DNA from: a virus
Taxonomy: Duplodnaviria > Heunggongvirae > Uroviricota > Caudoviricetes
Reading direction: 5' to 3' (one strand)
Virus record (IMG/VR): IMGVR_UViG_2690315742_000007
DNA length: 46,788 bases
Below are positions 3,309 through 42,034 of the stretch, in pieces (within the stretch, counting starts at the first letter, position 1; the number at the start of each line of letters is the position of its first letter). Position numbers and translations under genes: made by a program. The notes under the pieces are model-generated. The model ran no database searches and was not told where the DNA came from. It was given only the letters and a program-made list of their open reading frames with translations.

Positions 3309-3884
3309 CTACGGCAGTGCTGGCCATTCAATATCCTGTGCAGTTGACGTATCAACACGGTTCAGCAATACCCGATACTTTTTCCATGCTTCCAGCAACG
3401 AGATTTCTTCCTCCGTTGCAATTTCCAGATCTGCAGCATCCTGAAGCGGCGCAATATGCTCACTGGCTACCTGCATCAGGTTGTTTTTTGTTTCTTCCGC
3501 CTCCCGGATCCGGAACAGTTTTTCTGCTTCCGTATCCTTCACCCAGGCTGTGCCGTTCCACTTCTGAAACTCCCCTTCCGGCGATAACCAGGTAACATTT
3601 TCCGGTAACGGACCGAGTTCAGAAATAAATAACGCGTCGCCGGAAGCCACGTCATAAACCGTTTTACCCCGATGATCTTCAACGAGATGCCACGATGACT
3701 CATCACTGTTGAAAACAGCCACGAAGCCAGCCGGAATATCTGGCGGTGCAATATCGGTACTGTTTGCTGGCAGACCTGTATGAGGCGGAATATATGCATC
3801 ACCTTCACCAATAAATTCATTAGTTCCGGCCAGCAGATTATAAATTTTTATGGTCCGTGGTTGTTCACTCATTCTGAATGCCAT
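3309..3884 (-). CDS. tfa: Tail fiber assembly protein
   Basis: 191-aa ORF directly downstream of stf; recognisable Tfa-family sequence (lambda tfa / TfaQ-like). Confidence 0.8.
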
Positions 3885-28162: not shown

Positions 28163-28508
28163 GATGGTGTTAACTCCAGTCATCGCTGGCACTACCACTG
28201 CTGGTTCAGAGTTAAAAAAAACTATGATTTTTTTCATGATGTTACCGTAGTATGTGAGTATCCATCGAATAGACACCAAGCAAAAAAGCTCCCGAAGGAG
28301 CCTTCATTTTCACTTTTTTAAATCCAACGACAGACGGCTGGCATTTAAGTATTGTGAAATATTATCAAATGTAATCATCATTGATTTACAAAAGATACAT
28401 TTTGCCCCGAAAGGATTCATGTCAGAAACATCAAAAGATGATGTTCTATACTGGGAACCATGACAACACGGGCATCTAAAGTGAATATGGTTTGTAATAT
28501 TGTCTACC

Positions 28509-28721
28509 TCAAAGCGCCACTACATGAACAGCGGCAGGACCTTTAGGTCCGTTCTCAATACCAAATTCAACTTCCTGATTCTCAGTTAATGTTTTGAAAT
28601 CGTTGCTCTGAATTGCTGAGAAATGGACAAACACATCTTTGCTGCCATCTTTCGGCGTGATGAAACCAAAACCTTTTTCAGGGTTAAACCATTTCACTAA
28701 ACCAGTCATTTTGTTAGACAT
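28509..28721 (-). CDS. cspI: Cold shock protein CspI (CspA family)
   Basis: 70 aa, [38 protein letters not shown]...; RNP1/RNP2 motifs. Confidence 0.85.
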
Positions 28722-29083
28722 AATTATTACCTTTTGAAGAAATTAGCCCTTGGGCAGAATGGTCCGAAAAAAAATATCAGAGAGAAAAACCAACAAGGAA
28801 ATCTCAAGAGGTACAAATAATAAAATTATAACAATGACTGCTTCAGATAAATTTGTAACAAACCAGAACACCATTAACGCATGATTAACCACCCATAGCA
28901 AGGATTACTTTTGTAAAGAAAAACACAGCAATGAAAGAATAGCTTTATTTATTAATAAAACGTGTCATTCTGATTAAGACCTTTTATCTTACCCTTAAGA
29001 TTTCAGGAATTTTGGCTCATGGAAGAGTCCTTTTTATTTAAATTTTACATTCCGCGATGTAAATGTTCCGATTTAATATTACC

Positions 29084-30423: not shown

Positions 30424-30639
30424 TTACTCTCCTCTCGCAGCCTTACGCCTGTCTTCTTTAATCTTGAAATAAAGATTTGTCAGATACGTCAGCAGGCCAA
30501 AAACCAGGCTACCCAGCACACCGATTGCAGCCCACTGTGACGGAGTTACTTTATCGAGTAACTGCAATGCCCAGAAACCAGCATTACCCGCCGATGTGCC
30601 ATAGGCAACACCTGTTGTTAACTTATCCATTGATTTCAT
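30424..30639 (-). CDS. essQ: Holin (phage-21 S-type pinholin)
   Basis: Start at internal Met gives 71 aa [53 protein letters not shown]... with two TM segments. Confidence 0.75.
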
Positions 30640-30857
30640 ATCCTCACCCCGATGTACACGGATGGTGCAATATGTTTGAAAAGATCGGAGTCTACGGGGT
30701 AGTTTTGACAGCACACGTTGTTCTCAACGGCGCTAAAAAACATACACATTAAAAATGTGGGTAATTATTTTGAAAGAAAGTCATATATAAAATAATAATA
30801 CGAGAAATGTTTTCATATTTAGTGTACTGTATACGGCCATTTATACAGGAAAAGCCT

Positions 30858-31028
30858 ATGTCAGAACGTAAAAACTCAAAATCACGCCGTAATTATCTCG
30901 TTAAATGTTCCTGCCCAAACTGCACCCAAGAGTCAGAACACAGTTTTTCAAGAGTACAAAAAGGTGCCCTTTTGATCTGCCCTCATTGCAACAAAGTATT
31001 CCAGACAAATCTTAAAGCTGTAGCCTGA
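30858..31028 (+). CDS. Small zinc-ribbon protein (two CxxC pairs), function unknown
   Basis: 56 aa from internal ATG with upstream AGGAAAAG; CPNC...CPHC spacing. Confidence 0.4.
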   Translation: MSERKNSKSRRNYLVKCSCPNCTQESEHSFSRVQKGALLICPHCNKVFQTNLKAVA

Positions 31029-31087
31029 TTGATTTTATTAGTAACAAGTATTTTTTATATTTTAATAATATATTTAAAGCAGATAAT

Positions 31088-31112
31088 AAAAAACCCGCCT
31101 GAGCGGGTTTGA
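31088..31112 (-). terminator. Rho-independent terminator hairpin (AACCCGC-ctga-GCGGGTT); stronger on the minus strand, possibly bidirectional
   Basis: Perfect 7-bp GC-rich stem; on the minus strand it is followed by TTTTTTATTAT. Lies downstream of cspB. Coordinates approximate. Confidence 0.5.
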
Positions 31113-31391
31113 GATTGTGGTGCTTTTTGTGGGAGTCATCCACTTACGCACTTTGTTTTGCCATGCCAGCAGTTAGCTTCTGCTGTAAAACTATTCATGC
31201 AGCAAACCTGCACTTCACCACAATGGTTAGCATACTTTTCCTGATTAAGATTTTGCCAAATATGCTAGCCATTGTTTCATGTATTGGACCTCCTTACTTT
31301 TTATTAAAGAGATCCAATATTCACTACTCTGTCCGTATCTCTACTCAGGCATCAGCCTTCTTCGTTATCGTATACAGACGAGCGATGAATT

Positions 31392-31607
31392 TTAATCAGT
31401 AATGATGACATTTGCTGCTGCAGGACCTTTAGCACCACTCTCTATAGAGAAGGTAACCTTTTGACCTTCAAATAAGGTTCGATAATTATCATTCTGAATC
31501 GCAGAAAAATGCACAAACACATCTTTACTACCATCAACAGGAGAAATAAAGCCGAAACCTTTATCAGCGTTAAACCATTTTACTAAACCAGTCATTTTAT
31601 TTGACAT
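31392..31607 (-). CDS. cspB: Cold shock protein CspB
   Basis: 71 aa, [34 protein letters not shown]... Confidence 0.85.
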
Positions 31608-31907
31608 TCTACATTCCTTAACTTGAGCCTTTCGGCATAAATGGTTTGCATAACAGAAACGACTTCGTACTTAATTGGAGAGACTCAAAGAAGGAATAAG
31701 TGAATAACACCTGAAATGAGAACTGCTTTAGTAAACTACTTCGTATATCGTCTGTTCTTCAAACCGACGCAATCATTAACGCATAGTTGAACATATGAAG
31801 CAATGTTTATTTTAGACATCCAGCCATCTTCAACCCCATCAAAAAACTATAGCTTTCTTCAGGAACGTGTGTATAGTGCGCCAAGTTATCAGTATTAAGG
31901 AATTTTT

Positions 31908-32120
31908 TTGTCCCGTAAAATGACAGGAATTGTCAAAACCTTTGACGGCAAAAGCGGCAAGGGTCTTATCACCCCATCCGATGGTCGTATCGATGTCCAG
32001 CTTCATGTTTCAGCGCTCAATCTCCGCGATGCAGAAGAAATTACCACCGGATTACGCGTGGAATTTTGCCGGATAAATGGTCTGCGTGGCCCTTCAGCTG
32101 CCAATGTTTACCTTTCATGA
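31908..32120 (+). CDS. cspF: Cold shock protein family member CspF
   Basis: 70 aa, [37 protein letters not shown]... Confidence 0.8.
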
Positions 32121-32402
32121 GCTATATTAAAGCTTTAATTTCAGGCCCCATCGGATCACACATGGAGAGTTTTTATGAATAACCCCGTCTGTCTTGATGA
32201 CTGGTTGATTGGCTTTAAAAGCTTATGCTGTACTTTGGCCGTAATAGCTCTGCTAATAATATAATAAGCAGACTCATTGTGTTTAGGGACATTGTACTGG
32301 AAGAAAACATTTTAAACATCAGGCAAATAACCAAGTCACCAGCTAAATAATAAGTTAACAGACATGAGTCCCGGGATGAGATTCAACATTACCATTGCCC
32401 CA

Positions 32403-32437
32403 TTTAAAGCACAAAACCCGCTCATCAGCGGGTTTTC
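32403..32437 (-). terminator. Candidate late terminator tR' downstream of the candidate late promoter
   Basis: Hairpin AAACCCGCT-gatg-AGCGGGTTT followed on the minus strand by UUGUGCUUU, about 45 nt downstream of the candidate pR'. Coordinates approximate. Confidence 0.45.
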
Positions 32438-32481
32438 TACTTTTTCTTAACGTCGGGTATACAAAGCCCATCGTTGAAAAA

Positions 32482-32510
32482 ATTTTATCCATATTTTTTG
32501 AAAAATGCAA
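32482..32510 (-). promoter_or_regulatory. Candidate late promoter pR' (sigma70: TTGCAT, 17-nt spacer, TAAAAT), the likely site of QuuQ action
   Basis: Read off the minus strand immediately downstream of the quuQ stop. Consensus-like hexamers only; not validated. Confidence 0.4.
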
Positions 32511-32541
32511 ACATCATGTCGCCATCTTCAGCAAAAATCAT

Positions 32542-33294
32542 TTATCTCGTCACCTTCCTCAATTGCGCTTCCGCGTATGCTTCTTCCTGCCAGCACTTTG
32601 TTACCAGTTTACCAATGACGTCCGCATACCCCTTATACCACTGATAATCGGTCAGGTCTGGTACCAGCTTCTGGACATGACGTCGTGCCAGCGTGGTCGG
32701 TAAACGACTAAACCGGTTTCCATTACAACGCCCACAAATCTTATATACCGGTACGCCATGAAACCGGGTTCTTTTTTCATCCAGAACAATCCCTTTACCC
32801 TTACACCCTCTGCACGCTGTGCTGGCTTCGCCCTTACCATGGCAATGCTGACATAGTTCCTTCACCCATTCTTCCTTGATTACAGATTCCCCGCGTCTGT
32901 AGTGTTTCACCACTTCGCGCAATACATTATAAAATCCCGTACCTGAACAATGCTCACAGCGAGCCTTACTTGCCGCAGACCTGGAGTAATCAGCAAAGGC
33001 AAAACTCACGAGGTAAGGAATAATCTGTAACCGGATTTCTTCACTCAATTTGTTCAATGTCGGGTTATCCAGTGCCATCGCGTAATTTAGCAGGCCTTCA
33101 ATCGCAAACTGAGGGTCCTGAACACCAACTTTTGCCAGAAATAAGGCCAACCCAAGTGGTGCTTTCGACTGCACCATCCCCTGCGCTGCCATTACATCCG
33201 TAATTGTTAAACAACCGGTGCCTGTCGCTGGAGCGTCATCGCTCAATTTTGGAGATTTTGGGGAGTAATATTTTGGTAAGGCTTCAAGGTTCAT
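32542..33294 (-). CDS. quuQ: Late-gene antiterminator Q (phage 21/82 type)
   Basis: Internal Met start gives 250 aa (MNLEALPKYYSPKSPKLSDD...); Cys-rich zinc-binding motifs (CEHCSGTG, CQHCHGKG, CRGCKGKG). Confidence 0.8.
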   Translation of the reverse strand: MNLEALPKYYSPKSPKLSDDAPATGTGCLTITDVMAAQGMVQSKAPLGLALFLAKVGVQDPQFAIEGLLNYAMALDNPTLNKLSEEIRLQIIPYLVSFAFADYSRSAASKARCEHCSGTGFYNVLREVVKHYRRGESVIKEEWVKELCQHCHGKGEASTACRGCKGKGIVLDEKRTRFHGVPVYKICGRCNGNRFSRLPTTLARRHVQKLVPDLTDYQWYKGYADVIGKLVTKCWQEEAYAEAQLRKVTR

Positions 33295-36999: not shown

Positions 37000-38650
37000 G
37001 GGGACAGTCCACAAAACTGCCAACTTCCGCTTCTTGCTCTTAGCGGACATTAGCATAGGCTATTTACCATAACGCCTCATTACGCGCACCGCCCAGACTG
37101 ACTCAGCGCGTTTCTGGCATATCCCCGGTAAAACAAGTAACAAACCACCCGAAAATGAACACCAGAAACGCGACTTAAGAATCTACCCTATGAATGGATA
37201 TGCACTCAACCGAATCGATCTTGGTTTCAATCTTTTTTATCGGGATCAGGCTTCTTTTTAGGTAACTTCGGGGGCTTAACTTGCTGATGACTTTGCGTTC
37301 GGCGCGTAAGCCAGGGATGGTCAGCTTTAGGTTTAACATAGTATTTTGAGCGTAAATCAATACGGGCATTATCCACTCGTTCATGGACACTCTTTTCATC
37401 ATCCAGTGGTATAGGCTCCGGGCCATCAACATACTTTTCCCAGCCCAGCGCTTTCCCGTCATACAGAACGTTAATTTCACCGTCAAAGTTCTCGCATACA
37501 GTAACAACCGAATGCCTAAGTCGATATCCCCGGCCCTCACTGCGTACCTGAAACGCACTGCTTTTGTACTGGAAAGTGAGATTTTTAGACAGAACGCGCT
37601 TCGCCTGTAGGCTGAAGATATAACCCAGTTCCTCTTCAGAATGGTGCACATCAAGATGAGCATTATCAGTAGTACGAGGCGACGTAGCGAACCGGTTGTT
37701 ATAGGCTTCAATAAAGGTCGGCAACCATGCATTTGCTGTTTCAATATCACTGATATTCTGAAGCCGCATTTCTTTGACCAGCCTGTCCTGTAGTGTCTGA
37801 TTGGCGCGCTCTACCCGCCCTTTTGCCTGCGGGCTGTTGGCATGGATTGGCTCGATGCCCAGTGTCTTTATCGCACGAGTGAACTGGGTCAGCTCACCTT
37901 CCCGCTCTGGGTTATTTACCCTGAATATACTGTGTCTATCAGAGTAGAGAGCGAGCGGTACGCCATGATCATTAAGGTAACCCCGGAGGGTTTCCATGTA
38001 AGCCCGGGTTGTTTCAGCAGGCACAAAACGCAACGCCATCAACGCACTGGTGGCATCATCAATGAAAACGATCAGTGTACATCTGGGGCCTCGATTTTCA
38101 AACCAGTCATGAGGTGAGCCATCAATCTGGATCAGTTCACCGTAAGATGGTCGTCGCATGCGGCGTTGATATATACGGGCAATTTTACGACGGCGTTCAC
38201 GCCATAACCCCTCTTCTATCATCCACTTTCTGAGAGTTTCAACGGATAAAGATAAACCGTGTATCTCGCGCAATTTTTCGCACGCAAACGTAGGTCCAAA
38301 ATCAGCGTAACGGCCTTTGAGGAGTGAAATTACTGTTGCTCTGAATTCAGTAGAAAAGGAATTATTAGGACGCTTTCCACGTCGGTGGGAAACCAGACCA
38401 GAAGGCCCTTCATTTCTATACCGTTGCACCAGACGTTTAACCTGCCGAATAGAAATGCCAATGCGTGCCGCAGCTTGTTCCTGAATAATCTGAAGTCGGT
38501 GGAGTTCCTTATGACTCATCGTAACAGTCTCTTTGATCATGAAAAATCCCCCAGAGAATTGTCTGGGGACATTTTAGAATGGTTCAAAGGGGACATTACA
38601 GCTTGGTGTTAACAATAGCCTGCTTCTCCGTGCCTTTCGGCACGTAAGAG
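37000..38650 (-). mobile_element. Probable insertion element carrying the rve transposase; ends not resolved
   Basis: Transposase gene at a position that in K-12 Qin holds integrase and ydfW/ydfX remnants. I could not find clean terminal inverted repeats by eye; hairpin-like GGGGACA motifs occur near both ends. Confidence 0.4.
37227..38540 (-). CDS. DDE (rve/integrase-core) transposase-like protein with N-terminal HTH; IS481-like by architecture
   Basis: 437-aa ORF: N-terminal HTH (IGISIRQVKRLVQRY), central DDE region with a ...SPQAKGRVERANQTL... motif. Family call is from motif pattern only. Confidence 0.65.
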   Translation of the reverse strand: MIKETVTMSHKELHRLQIIQEQAAARIGISIRQVKRLVQRYRNEGPSGLVSHRRGKRPNNSFSTEFRATVISLLKGRYADFGPTFACEKLREIHGLSLSVETLRKWMIEEGLWRERRRKIARIYQRRMRRPSYGELIQIDGSPHDWFENRGPRCTLIVFIDDATSALMALRFVPAETTRAYMETLRGYLNDHGVPLALYSDRHSIFRVNNPEREGELTQFTRAIKTLGIEPIHANSPQAKGRVERANQTLQDRLVKEMRLQNISDIETANAWLPTFIEAYNNRFATSPRTTDNAHLDVHHSEEELGYIFSLQAKRVLSKNLTFQYKSSAFQVRSEGRGYRLRHSVVTVCENFDGEINVLYDGKALGWEKYVDGPEPIPLDDEKSVHERVDNARIDLRSKYYVKPKADHPWLTRRTQSHQQVKPPKLPKKKPDPDKKD

Positions 38651-38874
38651 GCTAACCTACATGTGTCTAGCATGAAATTGGCCTCAGATTAATGTTAAGC
38701 GTCTTGCAGGACGCGTAATGTTAACTGGGGCTTTTCTCTATCTGCCGTTGGTGTCCATGCCCGAGGCAGATAGCCTCAAGCACCCGCAGTCATTCTACTT
38801 AACTAAGATTTCCCCGCAAACCGTTTTTGTCCAGCACAGTAAATATCCAACTAAACCAATGGAGTTCGCTGTAT

Positions 38875-41981: not shown

Positions 41982-42034
41982 TTTCTGGTGACGTTTGGCG
42001 GTATCAGTTTTACTCCGTGACTGCTCTGCCGCCC
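41982..42034 (+). ncRNA. dicF: DicF small regulatory RNA (processed from the ydfABC-dicF-dicB transcript)
   Basis: tttctggtgacgtttggcggtatcagttttactccgtgactgctctgccgccc followed by a T-run; matches the 53-nt DicF sequence as I remember it. Confidence 0.8.

Follow-up and report, generated by a model that had tools for sequence, protein, structure and literature searches.

The 46,788-nt IMG/VR record IMGVR_UViG_2690315742_000007 (hereafter the window, meaning the whole stretch of DNA that was analysed) represents an E. coli prophage of the Qin type, whose late genes are carried on the minus strand; its late regulatory region lies between the antiterminator gene quuQ (ydfT) and the holin gene essQ. 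We conclude with high confidence that a Q-dependent late regulatory cassette of the lambda type lies immediately behind quuQ: a PF03589 Q gene lies upstream, a putative late promoter (pR') is found at the sequence level within about 100 nt of it, a pause element and an intrinsic terminator (tR') come next, and the lysis genes stand downstream of tR' on the same strand as Q. A first-pass annotation of this DNA had read the promoter and hairpin just after quuQ as pR' and tR'; this assignment holds up well, given the presence of the lambda pause element at the lambda spacing, the common register of the elements across nine phages, and an RNA 3' end mapped by Term-seq in K-12.

The proposed match to K-12 Qin likewise stands. 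The 2.3 kb around the Qin late promoter are 100% identical to E. coli chromosomes, and 1616 of 5426 complete genomes contain at least 80% of this region. The Qin identity comes from the RefSeq annotation of a K-12-derived strain, which lists rzpQ, rrrQ, ydfR, the holin, ynfU, cspB, cspF, a hypothetical 29-aa open reading frame (ORF), ydfT/quuQ and ydfU, and from which the window departs over the 2.3 kb by a single base, in a poly-A run at 30735. This run, in the ynfU-essQ intergenic region, reads A6 in the window and A7 in the K-12-derived strain.

A candidate lambda-type late promoter and pause element downstream of quuQ

The elements of the proposed cassette, in the order of late transcription, are as follows.

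32542 to 33294, minus strand: quuQ (ydfT), 250 aa; Pfam PF03589 Antiterm, E=3.6e-54
32505 to 32510, minus strand: pR' -35 hexamer TTGCAT, aligned in register to lambda TTGACT and to the -35 of the annotated phi80 pR', which is likewise TTGCAT
32488 to 32504, minus strand: 17-nt spacer TTTTCAAAAAATATGGA, by its position a putative Q binding element
32482 to 32487, minus strand: pR' -10 hexamer TAAAAT, aligned to lambda TAAATT and phi80 TAGATT
32467 to 32475, minus strand: sigma-70-dependent pause element AACGATGGG (-10-like AACGAT followed by GGG), identical to lambda pR' +1 to +9
32409 to 32475, minus strand: predicted short pR' transcript of 67 nt; 3' end measured, 5' end placed by homology to lambda pR'
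32402 to 32436, minus strand: tR' intrinsic terminator (hairpin 32436 to 32413), a 10-bp stem AAAACCCGCT/AGCGGGTTTT followed by GTGCTTT; also readable as a plus-strand terminator

The TTGCAT-17-TAAAAT promoter sequence begins 31 nt past the quuQ stop codon on the same strand, and the promoter scan itself returned an overlapping reading of the site, with TTTGCA and an 18-nt spacer. Such generic matches are not above chance, with 10 promoter-like sites found in 4.5 kb and 8.1 expected from shuffled sequences. The pR' site nevertheless rises above chance because AACGATGGG stands exactly 6 nt after the -10 hexamer, as in lambda pR', because the composite TANNNT-N6-AACGAT has a single occurrence in the window (as does AACGATGGG itself), and because this combination is kept after Q across loci. 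In lambda pR', the AACGAT at +1 to +6 is a -10-like element that is rebound by sigma-70 to give the +16 pause needed by Q, and a discriminator-like role is ascribed to the GGG that follows it (PMC4005639). By the same alignment, transcription from the Qin promoter is predicted to start at the first A of AACGATGGG, at position 32475 (MG1655 ~1,642,422, minus strand).

For comparison, the DNA following Q was taken from eleven other lambda-family Q loci, and phi80 and the DLP12 prophage were compared as well. The composite TANNNT-N6-AACGATGG is found exactly once, 40-80 nt past the Q stop codon, in lambda, P22, HK225, Stx2a_EH1910, mEp460, Stx2c_EH0430, 118970_sal3, Tritos, 2H10, PhiR42_1 and HannyBb. 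It is thus present in 11 of the 12 lambda-family Q loci checked, the exception being phi80, which carries the one-base variant AACGCTGGG; DLP12 has no match to the composite motif. In a nine-phage alignment the -35 hexamer, spacer, -10 hexamer and pause element all fall in register. The spacer is nearly invariant among Qin-type phages (2H10, mEp460 and 118970_sal3) and differs from those of lambda and P22. The lambda Q site falls within the -35/-10 spacer (PMC9388147), where the phi80 record also annotates its Q site.

HannyBb, whose record annotates many ORFs of ~30 aa, shares the pR', csp insert and lysis genes with Qin. A tblastn search of its 1.5 kb upstream of pR' (positions 1 to 1500) returned no QuuQ-like protein, which points to either a strongly divergent Q gene or poor sequence quality.

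QuuQ as a lambda-family antiterminator

Sequence comparison places QuuQ among the late antiterminators of the lambda Q family. This family corresponds to PF03589 (PMC9388147), and QuuQ matches its lambda member both as the Q chain (7UBM_Q) of the loading-complex structure, with E=4.6e-36, and in an end-to-end alignment with lambda Q, at 33% identity. It is 100% identical to the Q protein of PhiR42_1, 93-94% identical to those of mEp460, Stx2c_EH0430 and 118970_sal3, and 36.5% identical to that of phi80. Relative to lambda Q, residues ~122-169 form a 48-aa insertion in the zinc-ribbon arm, which holds four CxxCxGxG motifs in total, two more than in lambda Q; Pfam also calls a DnaJ central domain in QuuQ.

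The terminator hairpin and a predicted 67-nt leader RNA

On the late strand, the tR' hairpin is followed by the tail TTTTGTGCTTT. The whole predicted leader folds at -30.4 kcal/mol (z=-4.75), far better than shuffled sequence, and the tR' stem is kept across 6 phages, its position and pairing being conserved among the Qin-type phages.

The hairpin coincides with an RNA 3' end in K-12. The Term-seq data of Adams et al. 2021 (PMC7815308, Supplementary file 1) contain a curated 3' end at 1,642,356 on the minus strand of uninduced MG1655, with 55,000-123,000 reads and present in all three growth conditions, whose printed context is ...GCTGATGAGCGGGTTTTGTG[C]TTTAAATGGG. Using a coordinate offset of 1,609,947, set from the plus-strand 3' end at 1,641,060 (window 31113), whose context can be located unambiguously, this end corresponds to window position 32409, four bases beyond the U-run of the tR' stem itself. 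The authors classed it as 'orphan', with no annotated gene assigned (PMC7815308). Together with the predicted start at 32475, it would delimit a 67-nt RNA that we predict to be the Qin counterpart of lambda 6S RNA and of StxS (PMC7547250). Rfam, searched at a permissive E-value, has no family for this short RNA, and SMRT-Cappable-seq has no entries for the region around MG1655 ~1,642,422 on the minus strand.

The opposite face of the hairpin has a T-rich plus-strand tail, CTACTTTTTC, whose T content is higher in Qin, 2H10 and Tritos than in mEp460 or 118970_sal3, and tR' may also end the convergent cspF transcript; Term-seq records no plus-strand 3' ends at the tR' hairpin.

Several further matches were noted in the same searches. 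An isrK-like Rfam match at 31088 to 31166 reached 18 bits, where the gathering score is 50, and was dismissed as terminator similarity. Elsewhere in the window, Rfam finds an IS009 RNA (3343 to 3541, minus strand), the sok antitoxin RNA at the hokD locus (38614 to 38785, minus strand) and DicF (41983 to 42034, plus strand). A further Term-seq 'orphan' 3' end, at 1644572, maps to window 34625 on the minus strand, just within the start of a small ORF upstream of ydfU.

A variable cargo slot separates tR' from the lysis genes

Between the hairpin and the holin lies a slot of cold-shock and small genes, with the following features.

30652 to 32405, not assigned to a strand: variable cargo (moron) slot of 1.75 kb, between tR' and the ribosome-binding region of essQ
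32175 to 32264, plus strand: 29-aa ORF, RefSeq hypothetical protein WP_120795389.1 in K-12; antisense to late transcription
31908 to 32120, plus strand: cspF; Pfam CSD, E=5.3e-22; antisense to late transcription
31376 to 31768, minus strand: cspB (coding sequence 31392 to 31607) with its own cspA-type 5' untranslated region (UTR); Rfam RF01766 cspA thermoregulator, 158.8 bits; Pfam CSD, E=9.8e-32
31319 to 31282, minus strand: 15-bp hairpin downstream of cspB, followed by very abundant 3' ends at 31279 and 31277; fold -18.5 kcal/mol, z=-4.84
31085 to 31110, minus strand: second strong late-strand intrinsic terminator, 8-bp stem (31110 to 31091) and T6; on the plus strand, this hairpin terminates ynfU
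30858 to 31028, plus strand: ynfU, zinc-ribbon small protein; Pfam PF23499 YnfU, E=3.5e-31, and RefSeq; antisense to late transcription
30424 to 30639, minus strand: essQ, class II (P21-type) holin; Pfam PF04971, E=4.4e-34; first gene of the lysis cassette

After essQ, the lysis genes follow in the order ydfR, rrrQ and rzpQ, with rrrQ identified by Pfam as a phage lysozyme.

The borders of the slot are sharp. By blastn, homology to mEp460, Stx2c_EH0430 and 118970_sal3 extends from Q as far as the hairpin foot (32413/32406) and no farther; for mEp460 it restarts at 30651, 12 nt short of the essQ ATG. Guanine-cytosine (GC) content is 34-40% over most of the slot and 46-52% in the flanks. The slot thus shows the features of a moron insertion site, in that its content varies between conserved flanks (a methylase in mEp460, a methylase with stx2c in Stx2c_EH0430, an antisense ORF in HK225) and its base composition deviates. 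It also carries expression signals of its own, in the form of the cspA-type 5' UTR of cspB and separate RNA 3' ends, which Term-seq places at 31687 (inside the cspB 5' UTR), at 31279/31277 (after cspB) and at 31113 on the plus strand (1641060, at the ynfU terminator). Because they possess their own promoters and 3' ends, the cargo genes, three of whose four ORFs (29-aa ORF, cspF, cspB and ynfU) are antisense to late transcription, are expressed from the prophage independently of Q.

The 3' ends behind cspB (1641226/1641224, minus strand) are the region's most abundant, with 0.6-2.5 million reads, and lie 113-115 nt past the cspB stop codon; the hairpin that precedes them lacks a U-tract and carries AAGGAGG in its 3' arm. 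An 11-aa ORF (MKQWLAYLAKS) with a perfect AAGGAGG at 31280 to 31245 on the minus strand was set aside as probably spurious, the motif being an arm of that 15-bp hairpin bearing the main cspB 3' end. Term-seq records no minus-strand 3' ends at the 31110 to 31091 terminator.

Over ~600 nt (~31493 to 32117), the cspB-cspF pair is ~77% identical to the chromosomal pair cspG-cspH, a similarity that points to a duplication or capture event. Both pairs are divergent and bear a cspA-type 5' UTR on the cold-inducible member, but cspG-cspH, present in nearly all E. coli genomes, lies outside any prophage, whereas the Qin copy sits within the late operon. The csp insert is also found in the deposited phage genomes 2H10 (the exemplar of the genus Glaedevirus), Tritos, PhiR63_1, PhiR42_1 and HannyBb. 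In Tritos, a 258-nt deletion (equivalent to 32368 to 32111) takes out the 29-aa ORF together with the final codons of cspF, so that this genome record is without an intact cspF. Another cold-shock cargo gene, cspI, whose 5' UTR is also of the cspA type (Rfam, 112.8 bits), lies at 28482 to 28867 on the minus strand, just downstream of the lysis cassette, so that csp genes stand on both sides of the lysis genes.

Proposed mechanism and alternative explanations

In the mechanism that we propose, sigma-70 RNA polymerase would initiate at ~32475 on the minus strand, whereupon sigma region 2 would rebind AACGAT (+1 to +6, followed by GGG) and hold the enzyme in a promoter-proximal pause near +16. 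Without QuuQ, transcription would terminate at the hairpin (32436 to 32413) and release the 67-nt RNA ending at 32409, whereas QuuQ, bound between the -35 and -10 hexamers and loaded onto the paused polymerase, would render the polymerase terminator-resistant. The modified enzyme could then read through tR' and traverse the 1.75-kb slot, antisense to the 29-aa ORF and cspF, in the sense direction through cspB and its 3' hairpin, past the 31110 to 31091 terminator and antisense to ynfU, before entering essQ-ydfR-rrrQ-rzpQ. Q-modified polymerase ignores hairpin terminators over thousands of base pairs (PMC9388147), and the geometry implies that, if QuuQ acts, late transcripts would cross cspF, ynfU and the 29-aa ORF in antisense, and they might, as the first-pass annotation suggested, interfere with the cold-shock genes.

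Some observations weigh against this reading. The 3' end at 32409 could in principle stem from transcripts reading through from quuQ, and the late-strand U-tract at tR' is interrupted (UUUUGUGCUUU). A minus-strand Term-seq 3' end at 32241 (1642188, ~88,000 reads, one of three conditions), which lies 168 nt past tR' after a weak hairpin, may reflect Q-less read-through of tR' in uninduced cells. The zinc arm of lambda Q touches the Q binding element and sigma region 4, and, given the 48-aa insertion in this DNA-contacting arm and a spacer unlike that of lambda, the spacer is a candidate QuuQ binding site. Finally, K-12 Qin is a defective prophage, a remnant of ~20 kb.

This last point bears on the possibility that the cassette is intact in sequence but an inactive relic, in which QuuQ is never usefully made and only the short RNA and the autonomous cargo matter to the host. 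Termination at the hairpin in all conditions tested by Term-seq speaks for such a relic, and a literature search covering quuQ, ydfT, cspF and the terminator yielded no relevant match and no paper describing quuQ activity. QuuQ is nonetheless full length, with the identities to the PhiR42_1 and mEp460 proteins given above, and the same module with its insert recurs in deposited phage genomes; we consider the relic unlikely, though deserving of some weight, and it concerns the use of the cassette rather than its identity.

Alternatively, the hairpin could merely terminate the quuQ mRNA, the convergent transcript of cspF and the 29-aa ORF, or both; the 'promoter' would then be a chance resemblance in AT-rich DNA, and this site would hold no late promoter of its own. 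Promoter-like matches are indeed no commoner than in shuffled sequence, the hairpin was scored by our scan on the plus strand, where its tail (CTACTTTTTC) is the better one, and the Term-seq 3' end by itself fixes just one end of the RNA. Against this, the promoter, AACGATGGG and the hairpin are kept as a block in mEp460, Stx2c_EH0430 and 118970_sal3, which have no cspF, and Term-seq reports no plus-strand 3' end at the hairpin. The composite, moreover, marks lambda pR' and recurs in P22, and phi80 annotates its pR' at the aligned position with the one-base pause variant; we consider this alternative very improbable. A working late promoter elsewhere, for example just upstream of essQ, with the post-quuQ site unused for the lysis genes, was rejected as extremely improbable: a minus-strand promoter-like site (30791 to 30764, 9 of 12 matches) does occur there, and several terminators and 3' ends intervene between quuQ and essQ, but the DNA upstream of essQ is cargo in which homology to phages with related holins starts only 12 nt before the ATG, it lacks a pause element, Q-modified polymerase passes terminators for thousands of base pairs (PMC9388147), Q and S lie 6.7 kb apart in an Stx2a phage with a lambda-family Q, and the slot cargo of stx phages is generally transcribed from pR' (PMC8065619).

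The Qin layout among lambdoid phages

The lambda-type cassette that we favour finds close parallels in known systems. In the lambda Q-pR'-qut-tR' region, which gives rise to the 6S RNA, a PF03589 Q with 33% identity to QuuQ is likewise followed directly by the promoter, AACGATGGG occupies +1 to +9, 6 nt after the -10 hexamer, and an intrinsic terminator precedes lysis genes on the same strand. The lambda -35 hexamer, in contrast, is TTGACT rather than TTGCAT, the spacer containing the Q-site region differs in sequence, the short RNA ends near +194 rather than at the +67 of Qin, and QuuQ has 48 extra residues and two more CxxCxGxG motifs in its zinc arm; the Qin holin is preceded by 1.75 kb of cargo, whereas lambda has ~0.6 kb from pR' to S. 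The phi80 pR' (JX871397) resembles that of Qin in its lambda-family Q, TTGCAT -35 hexamer, 17-nt spacer, short leader and terminator ~50-80 nt after the start, but its pause element, AACGCTGGG, lies one base farther from the -10 hexamer (TAGATT), its spacer differs in sequence, with TCGCGGA as the annotated Q site, and its Q-holin distance is only 478 nt.

As in Qin, the pR'-tR'-stx-S arrangement of Stx phages places cargo between tR' and S, and their pR' is constitutively active and terminated at tR' to give a short RNA, StxS, as predicted for Qin. The likeness is closest in Stx2c_EH0430, where a Q-pR'-tR' module with ~90% DNA identity to that of Qin stands ahead of methylase and stx2c cargo; the Qin cargo differs in consisting of cold-shock genes and small ORFs, of which three run antisense to late transcription. 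The quuD-nmpC-essD region of DLP12, which shares the K-12 genome with Qin, also holds antisense cargo, over 3058 nt including IS5, between Q and a near-identical class II holin, but it is without the lambda-type composite motif and its cargo is a porin rather than csp genes.

The first-pass annotation had further claimed that the holin lies far from the promoter, beyond antisense cspF, cspB and more terminators, and had regarded this layout as unusual for lambdoid phages. The first part is correct, as 1902 nt separate the quuQ stop codon (32542) from the essQ ATG (30639) and the intervening terminators include that at 31110 to 31091. The second is contradicted by the distances from Q stop codon to holin start measured on the fetched records.

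P22: 434 nt
phi80: 478 nt
Salmonella phage 118970_sal3: 619 nt
lambda: 676 nt
HK225: 818 nt; antisense ORF directly after its terminator
Tritos: 1644 nt
2H10: 1896 nt
Qin (window): 1902 nt
mEp460: 2340 nt
DLP12: 3058 nt; antisense porin and IS5, same K-12 genome
Stx2a_EH1910: 6721 nt; methylase, tRNAs, stx2AB, antisense iraM, yjhS

Gaps thus range from 434 to 6721 nt, and antisense cargo occurs elsewhere, in DLP12 (porin), HK225 and Stx2a_EH1910 (iraM). According to a review (PMC8065619), every stx gene is found in the interval that separates Q from the lysis cassette, under the control of pR', and the late region is where morons equipped with promoters and terminators of their own cluster. 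The Qin layout is accordingly common among lambdoid phages and represents an already known kind of system.

Implications

A more far-reaching reading is speculative and, in our view, rather improbable. In it, the 67-nt pR' leader (MG1655 ~1,642,422 to 1,642,356, minus strand), which is not annotated in the RefSeq record examined, would be an abundant constitutive small RNA acting in trans, like lambda 6S RNA and StxS; tR' would work in both directions and also terminate the convergent cspF transcript; and a QuuQ-induced late transcript would silence cspF and ynfU by antisense while co-expressing cspB.

The importance of the cassette beyond annotation is small. The system is of a textbook kind, the genome is among the best studied, and only the coordinates of the promoter and a probable 67-nt leader RNA lack annotation. 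Within these bounds, the analysis gives to the base the positions of three Qin elements that the RefSeq record examined leaves unannotated, the late promoter, the pause element and the terminator, and it assigns an 'orphan' K-12 Term-seq 3' end to a probable pR' leader RNA. It also corrects the earlier idea that a long or antisense-occupied gap between Q and S is exceptional, and it shows the same slot between tR' and the holin gene to be occupied by Shiga toxin genes in pathogenic strains and by cold-shock genes in Qin-type phages.

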